Assembly (NCBI GenBank): GCA_035559535.1
Contig: DATMBG010000043.1
Coordinates: 62,001 to 126,000, forward strand
DNA length: 64,000 nt
Direction: 5' to 3'
Origin: Candidatus Limnocylindrales bacterium
Lineage (GTDB): Bacteria; Moduliflexota; Moduliflexia; Moduliflexales; JAUQPW01
A program made the position numbers and the translations under genes. Below the pieces are notes generated by a model that had not been told where the DNA came from, made no database searches, and worked only from the letters and a program-made list of their open reading frames with translations. Below, one piece after another: positions 1-17,472 of this stretch (within the stretch, counting starts at the first letter, position 1; each line of letters opens with the position of its first letter).

Positions 1-230
1 GTGGCCCAGATGTTGATAAATACCACCTTGCCTCGATAATCTGACAACTTTCTTTCTGAATCATTTAAATCCGGGAAAGTAAAGTCCGGGGCCAAAGACC
101 CTATTTTAAGAGGTTCAGGTTTTTGAAGGGTTTTTGAGCTTTTATCCCTCTGTATAAAAGCCAGCGCAAACACAGTTAGAACCAGAAGGATCGGGCTGAT
201 CACAAGGATCAAAATTAGCTTTTTCTCCAT
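1..230 (-). CDS. TlpA/ResA-family thiol-disulfide oxidoreductase (5' part; runs off the window)
   Basis: Hand translation from ATG at 230: MEKKLILILVISPILLVLTVFALAFIQRDKSSKTLQKPEPLKIGSLAPDFTFPDLNDSERKLSDYRGKVVFINIWA(T). It has an N-terminal TM and the redoxin APDF...GKVVFINxWAT motif. The active-site CxxC lies just outside the window. Not in the ORF track. Confidence 0.85.
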   Translation of the reverse strand, partial: MEKKLILILVISPILLVLTVFALAFIQRDKSSKTLQKPEPLKIGSLAPDFTFPDLNDSERKLSDYRGKVVFINIWA

Positions 231-352
231 ACCTGATGCGGTCATATTCCAACAAAGTTGAGATTAGCCCGGACTTCCACTTTTCTCCTTTTAAAGTTTG
301 AAAGTAGAACTTTTTGTCTCCCTTCAGGCTTTTTAAGTTAGCTGGCTTCAAG

Positions 353-712
353 CTACCTCTGAAGCCAGGGCCATCTGATAGTTTCTGGGTTAAAAATTGT
401 AGGACCTATCATTTTACCTTCCATAGTCACATTCTTCTTTTGCTCTGCAGTGAGTTTCGACAGATTTTTTTCCAGATCCGGAGTTTCCTGTAAGAGAATC
501 AGTTTGCCATCGGGTGTTTTAAGGACATGGGCGCCATGGCCTTCCCCTCCGGGGCAGACTCCAGGCTCAAGTTTTACACCGGTATCTGTTGGCAATACAC
601 AATAAATATGACCGGTAAGGGTCTGGGTTTCTTCTGCAGCCATGGTTACGGCTGCTGTGGAGATCAAAAGAATTGCACTTATAGTGGATATAATTTTTTT
701 AAAACTAAACAT
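353..712 (-). CDS. Exported hypothetical protein with Cys/His motifs
   Basis: Signal peptide (MFSFKKII...AVTMA), AGGAGG SD upstream, motifs HIYC...VCPGGEGHGAH. Confidence 0.7.
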   Translation of the reverse strand: MFSFKKIISTISAILLISTAAVTMAAEETQTLTGHIYCVLPTDTGVKLEPGVCPGGEGHGAHVLKTPDGKLILLQETPDLEKNLSKLTAEQKKNVTMEGKMIGPTIFNPETIRWPWLQR

Positions 713-846: not shown

Positions 847-1770
847 CTAATCTGTAACCTTCCAGTGCGCTCCCCCATCCGAGCTTTTGAAAACCTTTCC
901 ATCGCTACTTCCTGCATATAATACCCGGGTTTCAGGGTGAATGACCAGAGTTGTAATGTTGCTTAACCCTTCCCCCACTCGATTCCAACTCCGTCCCTTA
1001 TCCTGGGATTTATAAACCCCATCTTTCATTCCCACGTAGAACACCTGAGGATCTTGGGGATCCAATATAAACGTATAAACCGTTTGGTTTGCAGGTAGAC
1101 CACCCGCTTTGCTCCATCCTCAAAATCAGTCCATGCTTAGATAAAGACCATCGGCTGTCGCAGCTATCAACCAGATTCCTCCCATTCCTGTGGGGACGTT
1201 GGCTACCGTTAGGGTCTTTACATCAGCAGGAGGCCCATCGTCCACCCGTTGCCAACTCGCTCCTCCATCCTTGGATCGGTATAGCCCTTTATCTACTACC
1301 CAGGCATGAAGCCGTTTATCCGTAGGATGAACGGAGAGTCCATGGACATCGCTACTGGGAAGTCCATTTTTAACCGTCTTCCAGCTTATCCCTCCATCGG
1401 TACTCTTAACTACCCACATGTCGTGGCCCGCTGCATACATCACTTGAGGATCTGTCGGATCTAGTACTAAAGCCATAAAGTCAAAGTTTTTAAGATCCCC
1501 TTTGAGATCCAGCTTTTGCCAGGTTTTTCCTTCATCGGTGCTTTTATAAAGTCCATGATGAGTTCCCTTGAAAAGGGTATTATTCTTGGGGTTAAGAACT
1601 AAAACATGGAGATGCTCCATTTCGGTCATCTCCATCCTATGACTTTCAAGTAAGGAGGATTCCTTCTCTTGGGCAGAAACTTCCCTATTGAGAGCCAAGA
1701 AAGAGATCCTTCCTCCAAAAACTGCCATAGTCAACAGGGTCAAGATTAACCACAGATTTTTTCTCATCAT
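847..1770 (-). CDS. Exported BNR/Asp-box (YCF48/VPS10-like) beta-propeller with two in-frame TGA codons; candidate selenoprotein (U-F-U)
   Basis: ORFs 1126..1812 and 847..1065 share one frame. The joining sequence reads LYLSMD-TGA(1126-1128)-F-TGA(1120-1122)-GWSKAGGLPANQTVYTFILDPQDPQ with no other stop. It has repeated SxDxGxxW boxes. Likely start is ATG 1770 after GGAGG, giving about 307 aa. Confidence 0.8.
1085..1122 (-). promoter_or_regulatory. Candidate bacterial SECIS element
   Basis: mRNA reads UGA-GGAUGGAGCAAA-GCGGGU-GGUCU-ACCUGC-AAACCA. The 6-bp upper stem (1091-1107) has a GGUCU loop and begins 12 nt after the second UGA. UGG/CCA can form a lower pairing. It resembles the E. coli fdhF SECIS apical GCA-GGUCU-GC. 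Confidence 0.65.
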
Positions 1771-1860: not shown

Positions 1861-2799
1861 TTATTGCCAGGTGTTTCCACCATCCTGACTTTTAAGAATG
1901 TTTCCCCTGGCCGTTAAAGCATAAACCCTCCTGGATTCTACAGGATGCCGGGCTAGAGCCAGTATGTCTTCCCTAACCCCTTCTACAGGACTCCAGCTTA
2001 ACCCCTCATCCACGGTCTTAAGCATCCCTTGTTGCGTCCCCCCTAAAATCACCTTCGGATTTTCGGGATCTATCAACAAAGAAAATAACGGCTTCTCAGG
2101 GGATCTCTCCCTGACTGGCTGCCAGCTAAACCCTCCATTACGGGTCACTAAAAAACCGGCACTGGTTCCGGCATAAAGGGTTTCCGACTTTTCCGGATGA
2201 ACGGCTAAAGACCACACATTTATCTTGGCTAACCCCGGGCTGATCAATGACCAGCGTTCCCCTCCATTCGAACTTTTAAAGAGGCCTACACCTACTACCC
2301 AGATATAGACCTCCTGGGGATTATGGGGGTTAGAGGTCATGGCATGGACATCGGGGTGTTCAGGCAACCCTTTGACCAGGGAAATCCACCTCTGCCCTCC
2401 ATCGAGACTTTTCATAATGCCGATGTCATGGCCACTGGCATAAATCACCTGATCGGATCTCTGATGCACATAAAGTCCCATCACATCGGTTTTAGTGGCT
2501 TCTCCGGGGACTACCTCCCAGGTTTTTCCTTCGTCGGTGCTTTTGAAAAGCCCTCCATGAGCCCCTACCAGGAGGGTATCTGGATCTCCAGCCAGAACAG
2601 CCAGAGAGTGGAGATGCTGTCCTTTGATAAGAAGTTCTTCTCTTCCTATAGCGCTACCGGAAACCTGAATACTAATCTTTAAACCAACAAAAGCCAGCAC
2701 AAAGGTTATAATCAGACCCGTTATAATTTTATATAGGTTAGTATACCGCTGCATTTTAGATCGTTTCATCTTACTCTGTTTTCCCTTAGGTTCTTTCAT
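1861..2799 (-). CDS. BNR/Asp-box beta-propeller protein, membrane-anchored/exported; paralog of 847..1770
   Basis: N-terminal TM; HLHSLAV, GAHGGLFKSTDEGKTW, ASGHD, PDVHAM motifs shared with the neighbour; multiple SxDGGxxW repeats. Confidence 0.85.
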   Translation of the reverse strand: MKEPKGKQSKMKRSKMQRYTNLYKIITGLIITFVLAFVGLKISIQVSGSAIGREELLIKGQHLHSLAVLAGDPDTLLVGAHGGLFKSTDEGKTWEVVPGEATKTDVMGLYVHQRSDQVIYASGHDIGIMKSLDGGQRWISLVKGLPEHPDVHAMTSNPHNPQEVYIWVVGVGLFKSSNGGERWSLISPGLAKINVWSLAVHPEKSETLYAGTSAGFLVTRNGGFSWQPVRERSPEKPLFSLLIDPENPKVILGGTQQGMLKTVDEGLSWSPVEGVREDILALARHPVESRRVYALTARGNILKSQDGGNTWQ

Positions 2800-3304
2800 A
2801 GGACTCTCTTTCTCCTTTCGCCCCGTCAGGACCGGCAGATACCGGCTTAATCTCCGTCACAACCTTTGTTTGGACCTTTTCCTCATTCATCTTGCTTTCA
2901 TCCCAACCCTGTTCCCCTTCTCCAGGTAGATCCTTTCCAGCAGTCTCCTGGGCTTTTGGTAAGTCAGGCAATTCTTTAATTGATTTTGGGGAAAATTGTT
3001 CGGCAGATTTGTCCATAGGGGCAGGTTTTAAACCTGCTCTGACTCCAGGTGCCCCTTCTACTTCTGAAGACTGGCCTTTAGAGGGTTGCATCCTTCCCAT
3101 CCTCCACATCATATACCCCATCATGAGAGGACAGGCCAGGGCAGCCAGGAAAGAAGCATTAATTCCAAATGCCCCCAGAACTGCAGCCCCTGCCAGAGGG
3201 CCCACACAACACGCTCCCATTTTGAGCAGGTCTTTTACACCCATTTGCAGGTTATTCGTACCTTGACTACTCTTATCATCCTCGTTCTTATTACAGCAAT
3301 TCAT
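2786..3304 (-). CDS. Small Cys-rich membrane protein (DUF2933-like LACPLMM motif) with low-complexity tail
   Basis: MNCC start, MGACCVGP, TM segment, LACPLMMGYMMW; GGAGG SD. Confidence 0.65.
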   Translation of the reverse strand: MNCCNKNEDDKSSQGTNNLQMGVKDLLKMGACCVGPLAGAAVLGAFGINASFLAALACPLMMGYMMWRMGRMQPSKGQSSEVEGAPGVRAGLKPAPMDKSAEQFSPKSIKELPDLPKAQETAGKDLPGEGEQGWDESKMNEEKVQTKVVTEIKPVSAGPDGAKGERESYERT

Positions 3305-3331: not shown

Positions 3332-3550
3332 TTAGCAACACCCGACTCGATGACAAGATCTATAAGTAATCTGTTCTTCCGGCTCGGATCTGAATCGGGT
3401 CACTCCGGCTCGCTGAGCTCGAACCTCCTTAACATATTCTTCGGCATGCTCTTCTGAGCATAAGTACTCTCCGAATCGTTTAATGTTGAGATCTCGAACC
3501 TCTCGTCCGCAAATCGGACAATATCTTTCTGTGGTTTGAATGATCATCAT
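3332..3550 (-). CDS. Small TRASH/YHS-like metal-binding protein
   Basis: CPICG...FGEYLCSEEH motif, C-terminal CHRVGCC, AAGGAG SD. Confidence 0.7.
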   Translation of the reverse strand: MMIIQTTERYCPICGREVRDLNIKRFGEYLCSEEHAEEYVKEVRAQRAGVTRFRSEPEEQITYRSCHRVGCC

Positions 3551-3621: not shown

Positions 3622-4377
3622 TCATAACATCCAATAAAGAAAGGTATCATGAAATCCCGCCAACAGGAAAATGATCCCGGCTATTCGACGCAGGTACTTA
3701 TCCAGATTTTTCATTTTTTTCACATAGGATTCAGCCAGCTCGGATCCAAAAAGAAAGATGGACGTGAAGACCAGGAGTGGCAAAGTGGTGCCCAGCGCAA
3801 AGATAGCCGGGAAGACCCATCCTCCGGTAGCGGATAAACTCAAGGGAATGACAACACTGAAAAACAACAGGAATAAGGTCGGGCAGAAAGCAAAGGAAAA
3901 AGCCACGCCTAGGAGAAAAGCTCCCCAGATACCTTGCTGTTGAGCTTGTTCTTTCAACCACCGGCTGAAACCTTGTCCCAGGGATATCCCTGGTTTAAAC
4001 ACCCCCAGCATATATAATCCAACCAGGATCATCAGGGGACCCAGAGCTTTTTTCACCACGATGATCACCGGGATGGAAAGGGCTTGGGCCTGAGTCCCAA
4101 AGAAGACCACCAGGCCCCCAATCAAGGAATACACCAGAACCTTCCCCAACAGGTAGGCCAAAGCAGTCCTGGCAGCCTGGAAAGGGTTAGAGAGTCGTCG
4201 AGATACATAGGCAATGGCGGTGGCATTGGTGGTCAACTGACAAGGGGCCGTAGTTCCTAAAACTCCCATGAGCAACGCGCTTAGAACCGGAATATTAAGG
4301 GCATCGCTTATTTTTGTAATGGGATCGGCAACCGAAGCATAGAATTTACTTAGAAAAGTGTACCACTCAAGTAACAT
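3622..4377 (-). CDS. CcdA/DsbD-transmembrane-domain-like (DsbD_2) protein
   Basis: About 6-7 TM helices with the two intramembrane Cys motifs GTTAPCQLTTN and FSFAFCPT. Confidence 0.8.
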   Translation of the reverse strand: MLLEWYTFLSKFYASVADPITKISDALNIPVLSALLMGVLGTTAPCQLTTNATAIAYVSRRLSNPFQAARTALAYLLGKVLVYSLIGGLVVFFGTQAQALSIPVIIVVKKALGPLMILVGLYMLGVFKPGISLGQGFSRWLKEQAQQQGIWGAFLLGVAFSFAFCPTLFLLFFSVVIPLSLSATGGWVFPAIFALGTTLPLLVFTSIFLFGSELAESYVKKMKNLDKYLRRIAGIIFLLAGFHDTFLYWML

Positions 4378-4538: not shown

Positions 4539-5249
4539 TTATTTTTCAGGTTTTTCAAGCAAATGGGCTATCAGCTTTCTCGGCTCATCCTTATCCCACA
4601 ACCGTGCTCCCATAGCTGCCCCGATAATAAACCCCTCTGGATCAATCAAATACGTGACAGGAATTCCTCTTACTGCATAAGCCTTCGCTACCCTTTGCTC
4701 AGGATCCAAAAGTGCCTGGTAGCTGAGCTTGTGCTCCTCCATATAAGATTGAACTAAGTGGGCCGAGTCTCCCTGGTCGACGGAAATAGCCAAAACAATT
4801 AACCCTTTATCCTTAAATTCTTGATAAAGTTTTTCAATGGTTGGTTTCTCAGCGCGGCACGGGCCGCACCAGGTAGCCCAGAAGTTTAAAAATACCAGTT
4901 TACCCCGAAACTCCTTTAAACTAACCTCCTGCCCCTCCAGGTTTTTCAGGGTAAAGTCTGGGGCTTCAATTTTCTCCTTGAACTTCTGCACACCAGCTTT
5001 AACAAAGAGATCTTCTTCGGCTGAAGCTAAGAGCGTCTCGACTTCCACGGCCTGGGACTCATCTACCTGGAGACCGGCCGGTCTTTTGTCTGTTGTCCCT
5101 TGTCGGTTCTCCGTTGTCTGTTGTATCCATACCTTGACCTCTGACAACGGGCCTTTAATAACTGACCAGGAACCACTGATCAGCAACAAAAGAGCTATTC
5201 CACTGACCAGGATCAAGATAAAAATCCTTACTATGATTTTTTTAAGCAT
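4539..5249 (-). CDS. Membrane-anchored TlpA/ResA-family thiol-disulfide oxidoreductase
   Basis: N-terminal TM; APDFTL...GKLVFLNFWATWCGPC; cis-Pro loop GIPVTYLID. Confidence 0.9.
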   Translation of the reverse strand: MLKKIIVRIFILILVSGIALLLLISGSWSVIKGPLSEVKVWIQQTTENRQGTTDKRPAGLQVDESQAVEVETLLASAEEDLFVKAGVQKFKEKIEAPDFTLKNLEGQEVSLKEFRGKLVFLNFWATWCGPCRAEKPTIEKLYQEFKDKGLIVLAISVDQGDSAHLVQSYMEEHKLSYQALLDPEQRVAKAYAVRGIPVTYLIDPEGFIIGAAMGARLWDKDEPRKLIAHLLEKPEK

Positions 5250-8545: not shown

Positions 8546-8722
8546 TTACTTCAACTCAGAAAGTTCTCCCTTCAAAATGCTGGTTACCAACAGGTTCCAT
8601 TCTTCTTTGGAGAGTTTTACAAGATTTCCTTCCTCTCCAATATGGACTTCATCTTCATAAACTGTTACCGTTGGACAGGCACTACAGGCAGGGCACAGGG
8701 AGATAATTTGCTTAGCCTTCAT
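8546..8722 (-). CDS. 58-aa Cys-motif protein (CPACSACP), missed by the ORF track
   Basis: Hand translation MKAKQIISLCPACSACPTVTVYEDEVHIGEEGNLVKLSKEEWNLLVTSILKGELSELK*. Strong AAAGGAGG SD. Overlaps the merR stop. Confidence 0.75.
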   Translation of the reverse strand: MKAKQIISLCPACSACPTVTVYEDEVHIGEEGNLVKLSKEEWNLLVTSILKGELSELK

Positions 8723-9197
8723 GGGATTTCCCTCCTTTCTTTTTTAGATTATTCACCGTTTGGGTTTGTTCACGACCAGGAACCGGGGAATACCTCTGGA
8801 TCTGGGGACAGATAGTTTCTCTTTCAGAAGTCCTCTCGTCTGAACATTCCCACCGATATAGAAGGTCTCGGAGATCCTGTTGGAGCGTCAGCAGATCTTT
8901 GATCTGAATATCAATTTCAGAGATTTTCTGACGGATCATCTTTTGAATATGGGAACAAGGGGTTTGTCCTCTATGATAAATGTCCAGAATCTGTTTGATC
9001 TCCGAAAGTGTTAATCCCAGTCTTTGAGCCTTTTTAATAAAAACTAACCGCTCCTGGATATCCGGGTCGTAAATCCGGTATCCGGACTCCGTTCGTATCG
9101 GCTGAGGAAGAAGTCCCAGTTCTTCATAGTACCGAAGCGTTTTTGGTGAAATTCCTGTGTTTTTAGCTACTTGTCCAATATAAAGTAGTTTCTCCAT
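8712..9197 (-). CDS. MerR-family heavy-metal-responsive regulator
   Basis: IGQVAKNTGISPKTLRYYEELGLL HTH; Cys at PCSH, WEC and ICPQI; likely start ATG 9197 (MEKLL). Confidence 0.92.
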   Translation of the reverse strand: MEKLLYIGQVAKNTGISPKTLRYYEELGLLPQPIRTESGYRIYDPDIQERLVFIKKAQRLGLTLSEIKQILDIYHRGQTPCSHIQKMIRQKISEIDIQIKDLLTLQQDLRDLLYRWECSDERTSERETICPQIQRYSPVPGREQTQTVNNLKKKGGKSHEG

Positions 9198-9225
9198 AGC
9201 TTTCCCCGATCTTCTGGATACTTTT

Positions 9226-9257
9226 AAGATAAACCTTCCCCTATACGGGAAGGTCAA
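9226..9257 (-). promoter_or_regulatory. MerR-type promoter/operator of merR
   Basis: Minus strand TTGACC-N20-TATCTT with dyad ACCTTCCC-N6-GGGAAGGT in the elongated spacer (CueR/ZntR-like geometry). Confidence 0.8.
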
Positions 9258-9297
9258 GGGTTTTGTTAAATTTTTGAATGAATAAGAAAGATTAAAG

Positions 9298-9325
9298 TTG
9301 ACAGATGGCAGATAAATTCTATCTT
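9298..9325 (+). promoter_or_regulatory. Putative sigma70 promoter for leader/czcBA locus
   Basis: TTGACA-N16-TATCTT upstream of ATG 9362. Confidence 0.45.
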
Positions 9326-9361
9326 AAAGTTAGAATAGAAGTTTTTTAATTTACTTCCTTT

Positions 9362-9661
9362 ATGCTTACACATTTTGTCCGTTACAGGTTTCTTTTAGTG
9401 GGTGTTATTCTGGTCTTTACAGTGGGATATCTGTGGTGTTTTATAAACCCGGAAGAAATAAAGGGCGAGCAACATAACGACTCCCACGGATCGGGTAATA
9501 ATTTCTGCTTTCACTTCTATAATCAAACGGTTCATATTGAGATACCTCTCATCTTCCTTTCTATCATCTTACTTTTCACCTTTTTCCTATCAAATCTGGG
9601 TGAAATCCTTCCTGGTTTTACCTCTCCTCTCATCGAACCACCTAGATTCCTCCCCTTATAA
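9362..9661 (+). CDS. Small two-TM Cys/His protein ending LPGFTSPLIEPPR; putative regulatory upstream ORF
   Basis: Close paralog of 34365..34649 (shared GYLWCF.NP, HNDS, FCFHFY, GEILPGFT.PLI.PP). Confidence 0.75.
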   Translation: MLTHFVRYRFLLVGVILVFTVGYLWCFINPEEIKGEQHNDSHGSGNNFCFHFYNQTVHIEIPLIFLSIILLFTFFLSNLGEILPGFTSPLIEPPRFLPL

Positions 9662-9798
9662 GGCTTTTTAGTGTCTTTTTCCGGAAATTTCCCCTTTTTT
9701 GTTTAATAGAATTTTTATCTGGGGAGGCTTTTAACTTAGATCTGTTCTGAATAAGGGGTTTAGCTTTAAGAAGCCCCTCTTGCAGAGGCATTCTTTTT

Positions 9799-10104
9799 AT
9801 GGATAAGTACCTTAAATTCTTGATAGGTGGGGTTATTTTAATTCTTTTTGTCACGGTGATAGGATGTTTTTTTGATTCTGAAGAACTAAGCTTGCAAGGG
9901 CCTAATCATGGATCTCTTCACTCCCCAGATGGATTTTGTACCAGTGTAGCCATCCCTTCGACAGCCTGTAAGGAACCCTTTTCTTTGTTTTTACTTTTCA
10001 CTGTTTTATCCTCCCGTTTGGGTTCTATCCTGCCTGGTTTCTCCCGTCCTCAAATTCATCCGCCCGATATAATTCTAACTCAGCCATCACTATCCGATTT
10101 TTAG
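9799..10104 (+). CDS. Second small two-TM Cys/His protein with ILPGFSRPQIHPP; putative regulatory upstream ORF
   Basis: Same architecture (TM-GCFF, H..H, GFC, TM, ILPGF..IxPP) directly upstream of the RND adaptor gene. Confidence 0.7.
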   Translation: MDKYLKFLIGGVILILFVTVIGCFFDSEELSLQGPNHGSLHSPDGFCTSVAIPSTACKEPFSLFLLFTVLSSRLGSILPGFSRPQIHPPDIILTQPSLSDF

Positions 10105-10191
10105 TTTAAAACCGGAAAGAGAGTTCGTTTATAGACCTATAAGGGTAAAGTATTTAGTTTGATCGCCTAAAAGGAGTGTTTAAGGGGTATT

Positions 10192-11823
10192 ATGAGCAAA
10201 AAAATAGATAAATCTAGACTTTTTTATCTCTTGTTATTCATAGTCCTGATAGGGTTTTTGATAGGTTACTCTGAATCTCAAAGAACTTCCACGAGTAGAG
10301 TGACTGACCCTCAAGGTTCCGTAACGGAATCCCTATCGGTTACAGAAAAAAATGGGGATAACCATCTGGATAAGCATAATCCTTCAGAGGAAACCCGGCC
10401 AGATCACCATCATGAAAATTCGGATGCCTGTGGTGCCGGGAATACCCGGGCAATTCAATTGAGCCAGCAGGCCATGACCAGCCTGGGAATTCAAGTTGCA
10501 GAGGTCGATATCCGAACCCTTGTAAAAGTGGTCGAGGTACCTGGAATTATCAAACTTCCTCCTCAGCGTATGACTGGAGTGAGCCCTCGGATTTCAGGCC
10601 GGGTAGAAGAAATTCTGGTCAAGCCGGGAGATAAAGTGGAAGTGGGACAAAAACTGGCTACGCTTCGAAGCCTGGAAATTGAAAACCTCCATGTAGAATT
10701 GACCGAGGCTACTCATCGGCTCAAGGCTTTGGAAGCATCTCTGACCCTCCGCCGGGAGGTACTTCAGCGGGCCATTGGAAACGAACTGGAGCGAAATCGG
10801 ATTGAGTTGATCAATGCCAGCAACAAAGTCAAACTGGCTAAACAGAGCATGGAGCGGGCTAAAAGTCTTTCTGATAAGATTCTTCCGGCCAAGGAAATTC
10901 AACAGCGAGAGTCAGAATACCTGATGGCCTTAGGAGAGTTAGAAGGCGTGAAGAAGAAGTTAAGGCTCTTAGGACTCTCAGATAAAGAGATTGACCGATT
11001 GAACTCAAAGGCCGATGGCAAATCGGCGATAGACAGTCTTTCCCTTTCTCCAAAGGAGCTTATTAAGAAGTTCACCCCCCTGGAGAGTAATGAAGCTCTC
11101 AATGAACTCCTTAATCAGGAGGCCGAATATCGGAGTCTTCAGGTAGAAATAGAAGGAAAGAAACAGCGGCTTGAGGTTTTAGGCCATCCTCCCCATCCGG
11201 GTCATCCGACCAAAGATGAAGCTATGGTTGATTTAACCTCTCCTTTAAGCGGAACTGTAACCAGCGTGGACGCAACATTAGGGATCATTGCAGAGCCCGG
11301 GAAAGTTCTCTTCCAGATTGTAGATCCTTCGGTGGTTTATGTGGAAGGAGATGTTCCGGTGGAAAATGTAGCTCTTTTCAGGCAAGGTCAGGAAGTAAGG
11401 GTTCGGGTAGCCAGTTATCCGGATGAGGTTTTTCAAGGTAAAGTCAATTATATATCGGATGTAGCCGATCCGGTAAAACGGACGATCCATATCCTGGCCG
11501 AGGTTCCCAATCCAGATCGGAAACTAAAACCAGAGATTTTTGCAACCCTTACGGTAGTTGTAGAGAAAGCCGTGGAAGCCCTGGCCGTGCCGAAAGAGTC
11601 TCTCCTCACCGAAGGGGTTGAGCGATACGTATTTGTCAAAAATGGTACGACTCTGGTTAAACAGAGTGTTGTAACCGGAATCAGCGATGATCAATATGTA
11701 GAGATCAAAGATGGGCTTTTCCCGGGCGATGTTATTGTTACCAAAGGAGCTTATGAGCTTGGCCTGGCGAGTACTCCCAAAGCAGTTCCTGTTGGAACGG
11801 ATGGGCATGCACACACTCATTGA
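10192..11823 (+). CDS. Heavy-metal RND efflux periplasmic adaptor (CzcB/CusB family) with His-rich segments
   Basis: Lipoyl-like GRVEEILVKPGDKV, long coiled coil, SPLSGTV, VTGISDDQYVEIKDGL; HHHE and C-terminal GHAHTH. Confidence 0.9.
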   Translation: MSKKIDKSRLFYLLLFIVLIGFLIGYSESQRTSTSRVTDPQGSVTESLSVTEKNGDNHLDKHNPSEETRPDHHHENSDACGAGNTRAIQLSQQAMTSLGIQVAEVDIRTLVKVVEVPGIIKLPPQRMTGVSPRISGRVEEILVKPGDKVEVGQKLATLRSLEIENLHVELTEATHRLKALEASLTLRREVLQRAIGNELERNRIELINASNKVKLAKQSMERAKSLSDKILPAKEIQQRESEYLMALGELEGVKKKLRLLGLSDKEIDRLNSKADGKSAIDSLSLSPKELIKKFTPLESNEALNELLNQEAEYRSLQVEIEGKKQRLEVLGHPPHPGHPTKDEAMVDLTSPLSGTVTSVDATLGIIAEPGKVLFQIVDPSVVYVEGDVPVENVALFRQGQEVRVRVASYPDEVFQGKVNYISDVADPVKRTIHILAEVPNPDRKLKPEIFATLTVVVEKAVEALAVPKESLLTEGVERYVFVKNGTTLVKQSVVTGISDDQYVEIKDGLFPGDVIVTKGAYELGLASTPKAVPVGTDGHAHTH

Positions 11824-11825
11824 GA

Positions 11826-11960
11826 GAGACGCGGGGACAGAAAGATATAAGGACACGGAGTTTTGGGATACGGAGACAGGGGGACGTGGCGACACCGGGC
11901 TATATCCCCAAGTCTCCATGTTTCCCAGTCCCAAGTTCCCGCGTTTCCATACCCCTGCAT
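11826..11960. repeat. Degenerate octamer inverted-repeat element (gacacgga/g type)
   Basis: gacgcggg, gacacgga, gatacgga, gacgtggc followed by complementary tcccca..tcccgcgt units between czcB and czcA. Confidence 0.55.
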
Positions 11961-11969
11961 TGTGAAGTT

Positions 11970-14900
11970 ATGTGGGCTAAAATTATCGAGTTTTCACTTA
12001 AAAATAAACTATTTGTTCTGATAACAGCAGGTATTACTCTCATCTGGGGTTACAACCTTTTCCAGAAGATTCCTGTAGATCTTTATCCGGATATCAATAA
12101 CCCCCGGGTAACCATTTTAACCGAAGCGCCTGGATGGTCTCCTGAGGAGGTAGAGGCTTTAGTGACCTTTCCCCTGGAAAGTGTTTTCAATGGAACCCCC
12201 TTTGTGACCCGGGTTCGCTCTTCTTCGGGAATCGGGATTTCTGTGGTGTTTGTTGAATTTGAATGGGGAACGGATATTTTCAAGGCCCGACAGTTGGTTG
12301 CAGAAAAGCTTCAGACGGTAAAATTACCAGCCGGTGTGGAAGCCCCCTTCATGGCCCCTATTACCTCCAGGTTAGGTGAGATTGTAGAATATGCTCTAGA
12401 AGATAAAACCGGAAAGTATTCCCCCATGGATTTGCGGGATGTAGCGGATTGGATCATTCGGTTTCGGTTAAAATCCATCGGAGGGATTGCCAATGTAATC
12501 AATCAAGGAGGACTTCCCCGGCAGTACCAGGTTCAGGTGAGCCAGGATAAGCTGTTGGGCTATGGACTCAGTTTGATGGAGGTTCGGGAGGCTCTGGAAA
12601 AGGGAAATATGAATGCCTCGGGCGGGTTTCTTTTAACTCCCACCCAGGAATACTTAATCCGAGGGTTTGGGCGTGTTCAGGAGGTAAGTGACATTGAAAA
12701 CACGGTTATCACCACCAAAGAAGGTGGAATACCTGTCTTAATCAAGGATGTGGCCACCGTCAAAATAGCAGGACCTGCCATCCGTCGGGGAGCAGGAACT
12801 TTAAACGGCCAGGAGACGGTATTGGGGAAGATAAGTAAACAACCTGACACCAATACCCTTACTTTGACAAAAAAAATTCTGGAAGCTTTCAAGGAGTTGG
12901 AGAAATCCCTCCCCGAGGGGATTGTTATCAAACCCGAATATCTTCAATCGGACCTCATTGAACGTGCCCTGGCTACCGTCAAAGAAGCTCTCTTAGAAGG
13001 AGGTATTCTGGTCGTTGTTATTATTGTGGTTTTTCTGTTCAATCTTAGAACTTCCCTCATCAGCCTGACCGCGATTCCCCTTTCATTTGTCTTAACCTTG
13101 ATGATTCTCTACGGGTACGGATTGAGTATCAATAATATGACTCTGGCCGGGTTGGCCATTGCTGTAGGAATGGTTGTGGATGATGCCATCATCGATGTAG
13201 AGAACATCTTTCGACGCCTGAGGGAATATTTCTTCGGTACAGATCGGGCAGGAACAGGACAGGTTCCATGCCCTGGGGATACCCATAACAGGGCTTTTAC
13301 GTTACTATCTAAAATGGCCCAAACTCCCGGTGAGGTTGTTTTGAAGGCTTCTAACGAGATTCGAAGCGCAGTCGTCTTCGCGACCCTCATCATCATCCTG
13401 GTTTTTATTCCCCTGTTTACCCTGGAAGGGATTGAAGGTCGATTGTTTTATCCCCTGGGTCTGGCCGTAGTCATTTCTATGGCCGCTTCTCTGCTGGTAG
13501 CCCTGACGGTCACACCGGTGTTGAGCGATTTGATGTTAACAAAACCCAAGTATCTTAACGAACGGGAAAGTCCTCTGGTTCGTTGGCTTAAAAAAAGATA
13601 CCGTTCCACCCTCCATAGGGTCCTTAAAAAACCCAGACAAGTTCTGATTCCCATTATTCTCCTATTTTTAGGTTCGTTGGTTTTAATTCCGTTTATGGGT
13701 CGGGAGTTTCTCCCTATTGTAGACGAAGGGACTTTGTTGGTGAATGCAGTACTACCCCCGGGAACTTCCTTAGAGCAAACTCTGCAGGTCGGAGTACAGA
13801 TTGAGAAGGCTCTCCATGAGTTTCCCGAAGTAGTTTCTACCACTAACCGTCTGGGTCGAGCCGAAGAAGATGAACATGCCGAAGGGGTTAATACCTCTGA
13901 AATTTTGGTAAGTCTCCTCCCGCCAGAAAAACGAAAGCGGTCCCGAGAAGAACTTCTTACTGCCATGCGGGAACGGCTCAAGGAGTTTCCAGGGGTTCTC
14001 ATTACCATCGGACAACCCCTTCAACACCGTATTGATCATTTACTCTCTGGGGTCAATGCCCAGGTTGCCATCAAGCTTTTTGGTAATGATTTGAATGTCC
14101 TTCGGACCAAAGCGGAAGAGATTCATCGGGTTGTTTCTACCGTTCCAGGAGTTGCGGATCTCTTTGTAGAGCAACAGGTGGAGGTACCTCAGCTCAAGAT
14201 TCAGGTTGATCGAAAAGCTGTGGCTCGTTACGGCTTGACTATCGCAGACATCTCCCATTTTATTGAAACCGCTTTTAAAGGAGAAGCGGTAAGCCAGGTT
14301 CTCTTGGGACAACGGCAGTATGATCTGGTTGTGATCCTGGATGAAAAGAGTCGGGCGGACCTGGAAAAGCTCAAGAATCTGATTATACAGACCCCAACGG
14401 GATCTCGGGTTTCTTTGGAACAACTGGCAACGATACAGATAAACACCGGCCCTAATACCATCAATCGGGAAAATGTAGCCCGACGTATAGTGATTCAGAG
14501 TAACGTATCCGGGCGAGATCTGGGAGGATTTGTCCAGGAAGTTCAGCAGAAGATCGCAGATCAGGTAAAGCTCCCGGAAGGTTATTTTATTATCTATGGA
14601 GGGCAATTTGAAAGCCAGCAGCGTGCCTTCAAACGATTGGCTATCGAGTTTGTTCTGGTAACCCTTGTTATGTTCAGCTTGCTGTACATCAGCCTTCGCT
14701 CCGCCCCGCTGGCTATCGCCGTACTCCTGAATCTTCCTTTAGCTGTGGTAGGGGGGATTATCAGTGTATACCTGTCCGGTGGCGTACTTAACGTTTCCTC
14801 CCTGGTAGGTTTTATCTTGCTCTTCGGTATTGCCGTCCGAAATGGAGTACTTATGGTTTCCCATATTAACGATCTCCGATACCACGAGGGATTGGAATTG

Positions 14901-15179
14901 GATAAAGCTATCATACAAGGAGCCGAGGAGCGAATGACGCCGGTGTTGATGACGGCGCTGGCAACGGCTATGGGAATGGTTCCTTTGATCTGGGCACAGG
15001 GATCTGGATCAGAACTTCAGAAGCCTCTGGCTACAGTTATTGTAGGCGGAACCCTCTCGGCAACTGCTCTAACCCTGTTGGTATTACCTGTCTTGTACCG
15101 CCTGATAGAGGGACGTGGAAAGAAGGTAGAAAGTAAAAAGTCAGGAACTGGCGATCAGTTCACAGTTGTTAGCAGATAA
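11970..15179 (+). CDS. CusA/CzcA-family heavy-metal RND permease
   Basis: PVDLYPD, EAPGWSPEEVE, GMVVDDAIIDVEN, ERMTPVLMTA. Start re-assigned to ATG 11970 (MWAKIIEFSL); the upstream 50 codons are repeat-derived. Confidence 0.93.
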   Translation: MWAKIIEFSLKNKLFVLITAGITLIWGYNLFQKIPVDLYPDINNPRVTILTEAPGWSPEEVEALVTFPLESVFNGTPFVTRVRSSSGIGISVVFVEFEWGTDIFKARQLVAEKLQTVKLPAGVEAPFMAPITSRLGEIVEYALEDKTGKYSPMDLRDVADWIIRFRLKSIGGIANVINQGGLPRQYQVQVSQDKLLGYGLSLMEVREALEKGNMNASGGFLLTPTQEYLIRGFGRVQEVSDIENTVITTKEGGIPVLIKDVATVKIAGPAIRRGAGTLNGQETVLGKISKQPDTNTLTLTKKILEAFKELEKSLPEGIVIKPEYLQSDLIERALATVKEALLEGGILVVVIIVVFLFNLRTSLISLTAIPLSFVLTLMILYGYGLSINNMTLAGLAIAVGMVVDDAIIDVENIFRRLREYFFGTDRAGTGQVPCPGDTHNRAFTLLSKMAQTPGEVVLKASNEIRSAVVFATLIIILVFIPLFTLEGIEGRLFYPLGLAVVISMAASLLVALTVTPVLSDLMLTKPKYLNERESPLVRWLKKRYRSTLHRVLKKPRQVLIPIILLFLGSLVLIPFMGREFLPIVDEGTLLVNAVLPPGTSLEQTLQVGVQIEKALHEFPEVVSTTNRLGRAEEDEHAEGVNTSEILVSLLPPEKRKRSREELLTAMRERLKEFPGVLITIGQPLQHRIDHLLSGVNAQVAIKLFGNDLNVLRTKAEEIHRVVSTVPGVADLFVEQQVEVPQLKIQVDRKAVARYGLTIADISHFIETAFKGEAVSQVLLGQRQYDLVVILDEKSRADLEKLKNLIIQTPTGSRVSLEQLATIQINTGPNTINRENVARRIVIQSNVSGRDLGGFVQEVQQKIADQVKLPEGYFIIYGGQFESQQRAFKRLAIEFVLVTLVMFSLLYISLRSAPLAIAVLLNLPLAVVGGIISVYLSGGVLNVSSLVGFILLFGIAVRNGVLMVSHINDLRYHEGLELDKAIIQGAEERMTPVLMTALATAMGMVPLIWAQGSGSELQKPLATVIVGGTLSATALTLLVLPVLYRLIEGRGKKVESKKSGTGDQFTVVSR

Positions 15180-15246
15180 CCGGCTCGTCTCTAGGGTAGA
15201 GAACCCCCAGAGATCAGCTCTGTTAATAAGGAAAGGAGAAAACACT

Positions 15247-15711
15247 ATGAAGTACTTACAACGATCTAAAATCTACTGCCCATTGATTGTATCAATCCTG
15301 TTTGCATTCAGCCCGGTATTCATCGCCCATTTAACCTGGTCTGCTCAAGAAACCGGTAAGGAAGGCCATACCGAGAAAGCGCCCCATCAGGGTCAACTGT
15401 TGGATACCGGGGAGAAACATGTGGAATTTTTAGTAAAAGGAGGAAAAGAAGTTTACGTCTATCTTTACGATAAAAACCTGAAACCCATTTCAGCGGAAGG
15501 GATCGAAGGAGTCGTTTATTTCAGATTAACAGATAACAGCAGAAGAGAATCCAAACTGGCCCCGGTCAAAGAAAAAGACACAACCTTCCTTAAGGGAAAC
15601 GTAGACCTCGGGACGAAAGATTATAGTGAAGCCGTAGTCAGTTTAAAGAGAGGGGATAAGAAAGAGAATTTAAGGTTCGGCCATCCAGCCGGGCAAGAAC
15701 ATCATCAATAG
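15247..15711 (+). CDS. Exported His-containing protein (HTEKAPHQGQL motif), RND-locus accessory
   Basis: AAGGAG SD, signal peptide, GHTEKAPHQGQLL..HVEFL, C-terminal EHHQ. Confidence 0.7.
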   Translation: MKYLQRSKIYCPLIVSILFAFSPVFIAHLTWSAQETGKEGHTEKAPHQGQLLDTGEKHVEFLVKGGKEVYVYLYDKNLKPISAEGIEGVVYFRLTDNSRRESKLAPVKEKDTTFLKGNVDLGTKDYSEAVVSLKRGDKKENLRFGHPAGQEHHQ

Positions 15712-15954
15712 AGGTAAATGGTAAGAGGGGATGAAGCCTGCCTTGACCAGGTTAAATTACCGAAAAGCCCTAGCGGGGCAACCTGTTTGTTACCCATAGG
15801 GTCCTACTCCCAGATCTTTTAGCTCCGTAGGAGCCTCTAAGGTTAAAACCTAATTTGACATTATCGAGCTACTAACCACGGTGGTAACTGAGGCTCTTCC
15901 CCTTGGAATTGGAAGTTATTTAAATAAGGTGTTAAATCAAGGAGGAAAAAAATT

Positions 15955-17472
15955 ATGGGTTCAGACAAGTGGCTGGCTAATGTATACTCTGTACAAAAAG
16001 ACGTGGTCGGCATCGTTCTTCCACTAAAGACTGAAAACCTTTCTAGATTTATTGAGCAAATTCAATGGATGAAGTTCTATGGCAAGTCCATATTCTTAGC
16101 AATTATCCTGGTGTGGTATATGATGTCTTTCTTTCCAGAAGTGGGAGCTCAAGAAAACCCACAAACCGTAACCTCTGAGCCCACCTTACGCCTTGAAGAC
16201 CTGGAACAGAAGGCCTTGCAGAATAACCCGACTCTCGTTCAGGCGGAGGCTGTCATCCGCGTAGCCGAAGGACGAAGGATTCAGGCAGGTCTATACCCCA
16301 ATCCAGTGATGGGCTACAGGGGTGAACAGCTCAGCTTGCGGGCTCCTTCAAAGACCAGTGAGCATATGTTCTTCCTGGAACAGCGTATCATTACGGCTGG
16401 AAAACTCAGGAAAGGTCGCAATGTTTTTGCTCAGGAAAAGGCTCAGGCTCAAGCTGAAGCAGAAGCCCAGAAACTTCGGGTGCTCAGTACCGTTCGTCTT
16501 CTCTATTATGAAGCCCTGGGGGCCCAACAGTTGATCGAGTTGCATAATCAACTGGTTAAAATCGCCCGGGAAGCAGTGGATATTTCTGAGCAGCTTTTCA
16601 ACGTGGGTCAGGCTGATCAACCAGACGTCCTTGAGGCCCAGATTGAGGCACAGAGAGCCGAATTAGGTTTCAGGATAGCTGAAAATGATCGAGAGCGTAT
16701 CTGGCAGCAATTAGCAGCCGCTGTGGGTGATCCATCCCTCAAGCCGACTCGATTGGTAGGGAATCTGGAAGAAGAGATACCGATGCTTAACCGGGAGGAA
16801 ATCCTGGCCGCTCTTCTGCGTGAGAGTCCCGAGATCAAGAAGGCACAGGCCAGAGTGGAGCAGGCCCGGGCAGATTTGGAGCGGGCCCGGGCAGAGCCTA
16901 CTCCGGATCTCCTGGTGCGGGGTGCGTTTGGATACAACTTTGAGCCGTTGGAAGCACTGGGTGGGCCTACAAGACTGGAAGGAGCCATTGAAGTAGGGGT
17001 CCGGGTCCCACTTTTTAATCGTAACCAGGGGAATGTGGCAGCAGCCCGGGCTGAAGTCGATAGGGCCGAGCAGGAAGTGAAGCGTTTGGAGTTAGCTCTG
17101 CGGGCAAATCTGGCCTTGGCTTTTACACGTTACCTCAATGCCCTAAGTATGGTACAGCGTTATCAGAAGGATATTTTGCCACCGGCCCAAAAAGCCTATG
17201 AACTTTATTTAACGAGGTTTAGAGAGATGGCTGTAGCCTATCCTCAGGTGCTTATTGCACAGCGTACCCTGTTCCAGGTGCGTGTTGAATACGTAAGAGC
17301 CCTTGTGGATCTATGGCAGAATGTGATTCAACTCCGAGGATTGCTGCTGGCAGGGGGACTGAATGCACCGGACATGTCTCCAACTGGAGGCGAAATCCAG
17401 ACCGGTGAGACCCCGGGGAGCAGTCCCGGGATGCCAAGCCCTAGAATCCACGAGGTGCAGGAACAACGATGA
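15955..17472 (+). CDS. TolC/CzcC-family outer-membrane efflux protein
   Basis: AGLYPNP, two OEP helical repeats, VPLFNRNQGNV. The true start may be downstream, near 16069. Confidence 0.88.
   Translation: MGSDKWLANVYSVQKDVVGIVLPLKTENLSRFIEQIQWMKFYGKSIFLAIILVWYMMSFFPEVGAQENPQTVTSEPTLRLEDLEQKALQNNPTLVQAEAVIRVAEGRRIQAGLYPNPVMGYRGEQLSLRAPSKTSEHMFFLEQRIITAGKLRKGRNVFAQEKAQAQAEAEAQKLRVLSTVRLLYYEALGAQQLIELHNQLVKIAREAVDISEQLFNVGQADQPDVLEAQIEAQRAELGFRIAENDRERIWQQLAAAVGDPSLKPTRLVGNLEEEIPMLNREEILAALLRESPEIKKAQARVEQARADLERARAEPTPDLLVRGAFGYNFEPLEALGGPTRLEGAIEVGVRVPLFNRNQGNVAAARAEVDRAEQEVKRLELALRANLALAFTRYLNALSMVQRYQKDILPPAQKAYELYLTRFREMAVAYPQVLIAQRTLFQVRVEYVRALVDLWQNVIQLRGLLLAGGLNAPDMSPTGGEIQTGETPGSSPGMPSPRIHEVQEQR

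Follow-up and report, generated by a model that had tools for sequence, protein, structure and literature searches.

The 64,000-nucleotide (nt) stretch of Candidatus Limnocylindrales bacterium DNA analyzed here, which we call the window (GenBank assembly GCA_035559535.1, contig DATMBG010000043.1, positions 62,001 to 126,000), carries on its minus strand a gene (847..1770) that translation table 11 splits into open reading frames (ORFs) of 228 and 72 amino acids. An earlier reading made from the letters of the DNA (the sequence-only reading) had taken the two ORFs for one frame broken only by TGA-TTT-TGA at 1120-1128, and the minus-strand sequence bears this out: positions 1770-847 form a single 307-codon frame, in which TGA-TTT-TGA (1128-1120) is the only interruption and no further stop occurs from the ATG at 1770 up to the closing TAG (849-847). 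The codons around the interruption are GGT CTT TAT CTA AGC ATG GAC TGA TTT TGA GGA TGG AGC AAA GCG GGT GGT CTA CCT GCA, and translation with TGA as selenocysteine (Sec, U) gives ...GLYLSMD-U-F-U-GWSKAGGLPANQTV.... The first TGA (1126..1128) corresponds to residue 215 of 307 and the second (1120..1122) to residue 217, with a Phe codon between them (TTT, 1123..1125). Counted from a longer ATG at 1812, the frame would, with both TGAs taken as U, span 321 codons up to the same TAG, and the two positions would be numbered 229 and 231. As the ATG at 1812 is absent from that position in the same-genus assembly G001, where the MMRKN start is kept, 1770 is the likely start of the gene, giving 307 codons; homolog gene calls in the database also begin at the MMRKN position. 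The N-terminus carries a hydrophobic signal or anchor (MMRKNLWLILTLLTMAVFGG...), and the protein contains six Asp boxes. The sequence-only reading had noted that read-through yields S-M-D-U-F-U-G-W with intact Asp-box spacing and about 307 residues, near the 312 of a neighboring paralog; indeed, the interrupted box retains the S-x-D-(4)-W arrangement (S-x-D-x-x-x-x-W) of the other five, and the 307 codons from the ATG at 1770 compare with 312 for the upstream paralog at 1861-2799. We propose that the locus is probably intact and encodes an exported BNR/Asp-box propeller with six blades, in which both TGAs specify Sec in place of an invariant Cys-Phe-Cys. That it represents a real selenoprotein gene appears highly likely, because there are C-F-C homologs and TGA-bearing relatives, the 3' part is under selection, a hairpin past the TGAs covaries, and the genome encodes Sec machinery.

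A database search with the read-through protein returned 1245 proteins at E ≤0.001. Among the best 120 of these, 61 have the motif [DSNE]-C-[FL]-C-x-W internally, 38 end right after ...D-C-F (one of them as D-C-L), 13 end right after ...D, and the remaining 8 are other, mostly longer BNR proteins. Judged by where they stop, the 51 shortened entries are gene calls cut at TGA. All 57 aligned full-length homologs (262-399 amino acids) have C-F-C in the U-F-U columns, the first Cys aligning with the first TGA and the second Cys with the second. At the DNA level we compared 32 loci from species-representative genomes and the best 80 of 227 metagenome loci, both retrieved with queries from the Sec-type subgroup and hence biased toward Sec forms. 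Twenty-seven genome loci read TGY-TTC-TGA-GGN-TGG (C-F-U), two read TGA-TTY-TGA (U-F-U), and in three distant ones (30-32% identity) the motif was not found. U-F-U was found in L023, which is identical to L019 of G001, and in L027 from a Methylomirabilota metagenome-assembled genome (48% identity); L020 from the genome G048 is likewise C-F-TGA. The metagenome set comprises 74 C-F-U and 6 U-F-U loci and none with Cys at the second position. The first-position codon is thus TGY (Cys) in 101 C-F-U loci, and TGA also in L019/L023, L027, L056-58, L062, L099, and L104. A separate search with Cys-form proteins located C-F-C genes in cultured Alphaproteobacteria (Pseudaminobacter, Aurantimonas, Chelativorans, Nitratireductor, Jiella, Sulfitobacter, and others) and in cyanobacteria. 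Sec/Cys pairs therefore exist at both UGAs, through the 57/57 homologs and the C-F-U intermediates at 27 genome and 74 metagenome loci, and the idea that relatives might carry C-F-C or TGA at exactly these positions has held.

A gene split in this way under table 11 would also be expected of a pseudogene with two nonsense mutations, or of an assembly error, but the same TGAs are found elsewhere. In G001, a separate assembly, 48 of the 966 nt of the gene differ, yet TGATTTTGA and the hairpin are identical, and a 397-nt contig (X5) from a run of another study is identical to the window over 760-1156. These two independent sources speak against the sequencing error that the sequence-only reading had considered. 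TGA-TTC-TGA occurs in unrelated lineages as well (L027, L058, L062, L099, and L104), and the second-position TGA is present in 29/29 genome loci with the motif, in L020, and in 80/80 metagenome loci, across many phyla. Downstream of the second TGA, 29 of 31 genome rows have 89-93 open codons (the other two leave the contig), as do 73 of the 80 metagenome loci with 89-99 codons (six leave the contig and one reads 243 codons). The frame consistently closes just past the sixth Asp box, in several relatives with a true TGA stop. When the window is compared with L056 (86% identity), the ratio of non-synonymous to synonymous substitution rates (dN/dS) is 0.044 before the TGAs (55.5 synonymous and 13.5 non-synonymous changes) and 0.21 after them (20 and 18 changes, respectively); against G001 the values are 0.19 before and, from few changes, 0.42 after (6 synonymous and 9 non-synonymous). 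The part after the TGAs is under purifying selection, somewhat weaker than that on the upstream part, and together with the length kept in 29/31 and 73/80 loci this speaks against the relaxed 3' half that would mark a truncated product. With the downstream frame conserved and selected and the hairpin covarying (see below), the comparative data rule out a pseudogene or sequencing error as far as sequence analysis can reach, and we regard such an origin as extremely improbable.

The hairpin starts 12 nt past the second TGA (1091..1107, minus strand) and has the stem GCGGGU/ACCUGC with a GGUCU apical loop, which begins 18 nt past the second UGA and 24 nt past the first; it simultaneously encodes A-G-G-L-P. 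A hairpin resembling a selenocysteine insertion sequence (SECIS) had been noticed in the sequence-only reading, and the element GCGGGU-GGUCU-ACCUGC (1107-1091) proves to be conserved with covariation. The consensus (G)GUGGGC-GGUCU-GCCCAC(C) lies 11-12 nt past the second UGA in every Sec-form gene aligned (28/28), and the inner six base pairs are standard in all 28 distinct aligned sequences. The window itself shows two compensatory double changes, U-A to C-G at one pair and C-G to U-A at another, and L028 a third (C-G to G-C). Shifting the 3' arm by 1-3 columns lowers pairing from 94% to 33-54%. The hairpin encodes V/A-G-G-L-P, and since its fourfold-degenerate third positions are near-invariant while the Gly codon directly past the UGA uses all four bases, the pattern points to a constraint acting on the hairpin RNA. 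L056/L057 have GUGGGU-GGUCU-ACCCGC, a form that bridges the family consensus and the window version and indicates the order of the compensatory changes.

Over a 24-nt segment, the hairpin energy averages -13.1 kcal/mol over 111 Sec-form rows (range -17.5 to -8.2) and -4.7 kcal/mol over 25 Cys-form rows (range -13.6 to -0.7), the latter including one chance regular-expression match (L157) and one second paralog (L139); no common hairpin was seen in the equivalent 24-nt segment of these 25 rows. The window hairpin has about -9.0 kcal/mol, a value obtained from L148, whose sequence is identical there. The bacterial SECIS (bSECIS) model calls for an apical loop of 3-9 nt, an upper stem of 4-16 bp, G in the first two loop positions, a UGA-to-loop distance of 16-37 nt, and an energy ≤-7.5 kcal/mol (PMC13188914). 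The window hairpin falls within these limits for both UGAs (5-nt GGUCU loop, 6-7-bp stem, 18/24 nt, -9.0 kcal/mol). Folding of the whole region, over a 76-nt stretch, gave a result no better than shuffled sequences (z -0.44); meaning attaches to the local hairpin alone, not to the wider fold. The element shares with Escherichia coli fdhF-type SECIS elements and the bSECISearch consensus a short stem-loop within the coding sequence past the UGA and a small apical loop starting with G-G-U, and we take its GGUC loop and position to resemble those of fdhF. It differs from fdhF in that two UGAs, 6 nt from each other, apparently share one hairpin: U-F-U genes contain no additional hairpin, and L027 (U-F-U) and L024 (C-F-U) have the same one.

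The sequence-only reading had proposed a search for the Sec machinery, and selA, selB, selC (tRNA-Sec), and selD are all present in the genome. The tRNA-Sec (anticodon tca) is located on contig C58, SelA (540 bits) is encoded on the same contig as the window, the SelB wing domain (75.7 bits) lies in a 637-residue frame, and SelD (388.6 bits) has an in-frame TGA of its own. This selD (L003, G000:C29:76668-77594, plus strand) is itself a selenoprotein gene (VECGG-U-AAKLSP), with an in-frame TGA followed 13 nt on by a 7-bp stem with a GGU loop. Because selD carries a UGA with a comparable GGU-loop hairpin, the SelB of this organism would already read such elements. SelB and Sec-tRNA(Sec) would be recruited twice to a single hairpin, once for each UGA at an interval of two codons, and on the available comparisons we consider it likely that both UGAs are read as Sec.

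Decoding outside the Sec system, by a changed code (Trp or Gly), a suppressor tRNA, or near-cognate read-through, would also restore the frame, and Gly at the TGAs would give S-M-D-G-F-G-G-W, an acceptable-looking Asp box. TGA is, however, a normal stop elsewhere in this genome: it terminates 336 of 1502 stop-to-stop frames of ≥400 codons, and the neighboring DsbD_2, LysR, CusB-like, and OEP genes end in it. The sole tRNA with anticodon UCA in the genome is the tRNA-Sec, homologs have Cys at both positions and neither Gly nor Trp, several relatives close the same gene with a genuine TGA stop, and the hairpin matches the SelB-type SECIS model. We consider non-Sec decoding very improbable.

To place the two Sec positions in an evolutionary frame, we used a FastTree phylogeny of 117 rows (100 C-F-U, 10 U-F-U, and 7 C-F-C outgroups), with TGA treated as a gap and rows of <200 residues excluded; FastTree support is weaker than that of a bootstrap analysis, and the root depends on long Cys-form branches. 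All Sec forms fall on one side of a branch with support 93. U-F-U, a minority form (10/110 Sec-form rows), requires at least three changes on this tree, the same number that the well-supported branches force. One U-F-U group is the lineage of the window (the window, L019/L023, and L056/57); a second, of Methylomirabilota type (L027, L062, L099, and L104), adjoins C-F-U kin at <0.1 changes/site; the third is L058, which lies inside a C-F-U group. In the simplest reading of these sequences, Sec and its SECIS arose once, at position 2, and position 1 then switched repeatedly between TGY and TGA by single bases, switches that the existing hairpin would make tolerable.

Only the second UGA might be read efficiently, the first being a recent Cys-to-stop change that leaves mainly a 214-residue fragment from a weakened or selenium-throttled allele. 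A single base change turns TGY into TGA, U-F-U is the minority form, the conserved hairpin spacing suits the second UGA, and dN/dS is higher downstream than upstream. Set against these points, U-F-U arose at least three times and is kept in at least three species-level variants (the window, G001/L023, and L056/57 at 86% identity), the downstream dN/dS is still 0.21, and the 24-nt distance of the first UGA lies within the published 16-37 nt (PMC13188914). We hold this explanation to be unlikely.

The read-through protein belongs to the BNR/Asp-box β-propeller superfamily by its six Asp boxes, its Pfam matches, all above cut-off (Sortilin-Vps10, 66.5 bits, cut-off 33; PSII_BNR, 39.6; BNR, 37.9, cut-off 27), and a six-bladed structural model. 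No NCBIfam model reaches its cut-off: the best, NF045728, scores 125.4 bits versus 175 and covers only part of the profile, and Ycf48/HCF136 (NF010237) scores 38.8 bits against a cut-off of 326, with no photosynthesis context. Membership in Ycf48 or in NF045728 (F510_1955 glycosylhydrolase) was therefore rejected, both scores lying below the curated equivalog cut-offs. The AlphaFold2 (AF2) model, built with 52 sequences, has a mean predicted local distance difference test score (pLDDT) of 85, mostly >90 in the propeller domain, and a predicted template modeling (TM) score (pTM) of 0.77, and shows six four-stranded blades following a disordered hydrophobic N-terminus. Residues 229-231 (numbered, as below, from the ATG at 1812) lie between strands E222-227 and ∼233, which in the model places U-F-U in the rim turn joining strands 3 and 4 of blade 4, at the Asp-box position. 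Foldseek returned only generic BNR propellers at TM 0.5-0.6 (GH74 enzymes, 3b7f, Ycf48, and DAIP), with probability 1.0 for 2cn2, 3b7f, 5ojp, and 2xbg; a profile search of PDB sequences found no nearer relative and no solved family member, and the ESM Atlas, queried with a natural Cys-form homolog, gave generic BNR clusters only. The protein thus shares Asp-box repeats and fold with Ycf48/HCF136, GH74 xyloglucanases, 3b7f, and NF045728, but differs in that six blades are modeled with moderate TM values and hence no close structural match, no solved relative was matched through the C-F-C region, and the gene context is one of copper handling rather than photosystem II or glycan breakdown.

Outside the repeat scaffold, M210, C229, F230, C231, and W233 are invariant across Cys and Sec forms, and H130, R189, D192, G193, and P194 are invariant or nearly so. 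M210 sits in a T-G-M-G-G loop linking strands 1 and 2 of blade 4. In β-propellers, the blade 1-2 loop and the 3-4 loop share one face, and by this analogy the Met loop may meet the U-F-U turn.

The gene lies within an operon on the minus strand, in the order TlpA-like protein, DsbD_2 protein, 72-residue protein, CC-motif membrane protein, paralog, selenoprotein, 119-residue protein, second TlpA-like protein, 98-residue ORF, and multicopper oxidase. The first gene (4539..5249) encodes a TlpA/ResA-like exported thioredoxin-fold reductase with a WCGPC motif (AhpC-TSA, 111.5 bits; Redoxin, 86.9). It is followed by a CcdA/DsbD-type membrane protein (3622..4377; DsbD_2, PF13386, 93.1 bits), likely a transmembrane route for reductant as judged by its family. 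The same protein scores 190.1 bits with the ArsG-family efflux permease model NF040495 (cut-off 200), which leaves the CcdA-like label uncertain. The next gene (3332..3550) encodes a Cys-rich protein of 72 residues (CPICG...LCSEEH, ending in ...VGCC-COOH) that has no Pfam or NCBIfam match and looks, by its sequence, like a small metal-binding protein. The small membrane protein after it (2786..3304) has a GACCVGP motif and matches DUF2933 at 17.5 bits, below cut-off; relatives of this CC-motif protein recur beside the propeller gene elsewhere, and DUF2933 is found in L142. The 312-residue paralog (1861..2799) shares 34% identity with the selenoprotein and has T-R-N-G-G-F-S-W at the corresponding Asp box, without C-F-C or U-F-U. 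A second, motif-less BNR propeller often accompanies the C-F-C/U-F-U gene, for example at L136:9079-9960.

Directly downstream of the selenoprotein gene lies that of a secreted Cys/His protein of 119 residues (353..712; HIYC..., GVCPGGEGHGAH) with no family match, and then that of the second TlpA-like reductase (1..245, minus strand), which extends past the left end of the window and, in full translation, has 191 residues and a WCPPC motif. This reductase was rejected as a further selenoprotein, given its WCPPC and the lack of an in-frame TGA. Beyond the left end, also on the minus strand, a 98-residue ORF separates it from a multicopper oxidase gene (G000:C43:59687-61303) with Cu-oxidase_3, Cu-oxidase_2, and Cu-oxidase domains and a copper_res_A score of 261.6 bits, below cut-off. 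At 8712-17472 the family scan identified a MerR-type regulator, a CusB/CusA-like resistance-nodulation-division (RND) pump, and an outer-membrane factor.

We compared this setting with 30 Sec-form loci, in which neighbors were clustered by BLAST and named by eye from cluster representatives, the family scan being made on the members from the window; ORF picking was rough in high-GC loci, and clusters 2 and 11 are opposite-strand artifacts. Recurrent neighbors are a Met-rich multicopper oxidase (11 of the 30 loci), DsbD_2 (8), the CC-motif membrane protein (8), a DsbA-like protein (7), a Met-rich cytochrome c (6), a heavy-metal (Cu-type) P-type ATPase (5), and SCO1 (4). In four Cys-form loci, where 41 of 76 ORFs were scanned with Pfam, we found MerR, multicopper oxidase, DUF2933, zf_CopZ, cation diffusion facilitator (CDF) transporters, and a second propeller, with DUF411 genes in three of the four. 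Two TlpA-like genes stand directly upstream of the Cys-form propeller gene, with a gap of 29 nt in L136. From these gene contents we infer a setting of copper (possibly silver) homeostasis with periplasmic reductant supply. TlpA/ScoI and CopG (DUF411) likewise carry Cys motifs and are exported, and their genes also neighbor those of TlpA-like reductases, multicopper oxidases, and MerR-type regulators, but these proteins have no sequence or fold kinship with the present protein, whose C-F-C/U-F-U lies on a propeller loop.

A copper-related role of the protein seems reasonably probable on this neighborhood. The vicinal selenol pair on blade 4 would be kept reduced via the TlpA-like proteins and CcdA, would bind or pass on Cu(I), and may act with the invariant Met of the neighboring T-G-M-G-G loop; selenium would provide a more nucleophilic and more readily re-reduced ligand than sulfur. 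A direct Cu(I) ligand, rather than a purely redox function, is a possibility we put forward tentatively. TlpA is known to reduce the copper-binding cysteines of ScoI and CoxB, enabling copper uptake.

U-F-U could instead be a catalytic redox centre of a double selenoprotein, cycling between selenol and diselenide or selenenylsulfide and binding no metal. Such a centre could reduce Cu(II), repair wrong periplasmic disulfides made by copper, or reduce a small substrate, with recycling by TlpA-like proteins and CcdA. C-x-C motifs are redox-active in other proteins, a TlpA-like pair lies directly upstream of the Cys-form genes (29 nt away in L136), TlpA-like genes flank the gene here, and DsbD_2 is part of the operon. 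Most known selenoproteins are redox proteins (PMC13188914). However, if the part played by TlpA toward ScoI and CoxB is taken as a guide, reductase neighbors fit a metal-binding role equally well, and the loop beside U-F-U holds an invariant Met, which suggests a site for a soft metal. We regard the purely redox explanation as about as plausible as direct Cu(I) binding, each being somewhat less likely than not.

Several observations weigh against our proposal of a doubly decoded, copper-handling propeller. Of the two UGAs, the second is better positioned relative to the hairpin; the first lies 6 nt farther from it. A look-up of sequencing runs that carry the gene listed no RNA run. dN/dS after the TGAs (0.21-0.42) exceeds that before them (0.04-0.19), from small counts. 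Unlike fdhF-type elements, the hairpin has no Rfam match: a scan of 1000-1200 with E values up to 10 detected no SECIS family and one chance MS2 match. The His residues conserved in the Sec subgroup vary across the whole family. The MerR, CadR, CueR, and ZntR models score alike on the regulator, all below cut-off, and do not identify the metal, and the copper role is deduced entirely from gene neighborhood. For E. coli, a figure of 30-40% is given for the recoding of one site (PMC4513850). Because two serial Sec insertions should lower the yield further, much of the product may end at residue 214. As the two insertions probably cost yield, the U-F-U form may tie expression to the selenium supply.

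The sequence-only reading had described a selenoprotein family that it did not recognize, and the family is also absent from the sources we consulted. Table 1 of a 2026 inventory comprises 119 prokaryotic selenoprotein families, and neither this table nor a term search of the review returned BNR, propeller, photosystem, WD40, YVTN, Ycf48, F510_1955, UxU, or CFU (PMC13188914). No NCBIfam selenoprotein model matches the window protein. A term search of the main texts of BSepDB (PMC13326102) and SelCysML (PMC13745706) showed no such family, although their supplements may list more, and literature searches turned up no publication that treats this family or describes a single bacterial SECIS acting on two UGAs. 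Double-Sec families are listed in the same inventory: Prx-like UxxU, FmdB-family UxxU, metal-binding protein NF041115 UxxU, MbdU with two CU motifs, and TsoB UxxxxU (PMC13188914). They resemble the present gene in having two in-frame UGAs a few codons apart and Cys in homologs, and metal or metalloid binding is presumed for several of them, but they differ in spacing from U-x-U and in having a thioredoxin-like or small metal-binding domain instead of a β-propeller.

On the sequence comparisons made here, Sec decoding at this locus appears to be of the ordinary bacterial kind, and the family, itself unlisted, brings to selenoproteins both a new fold class and a new tandem arrangement, U-x-U. 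More speculatively, it might be the first natural U-x-U site, on a propeller rim loop, with a single SECIS for both Sec residues and a Se-Se or Se-Cu(I)-Se centre, in a widespread, uncatalogued family of periplasmic copper-defense proteins. The family would add a fold that is neither thioredoxin nor molybdoenzyme, together with the U-x-U motif, to the selenoproteome, and would tie selenium use to copper defense. With C-F-C, C-F-U, and U-F-U coexisting in close kin that share the hairpin, the reach of a SECIS and the gain of Sec over Cys become testable position by position; if position 1 did switch between Cys and Sec at least three times, it offers a natural experiment on SECIS range and on the effect of selenium on copper chemistry.

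Gene callers truncate the family at TGA, which makes it a mis-annotated copper-operon family in Methylomirabilota/Rokubacteria, Deltaproteobacteria, Binatia, Acidobacteriota, and others. An ESM Atlas cluster of 220 members with a 199-residue representative, commonest in Rokuibacteriota, looks like Sec-form N-terminal stumps filed as complete proteins.

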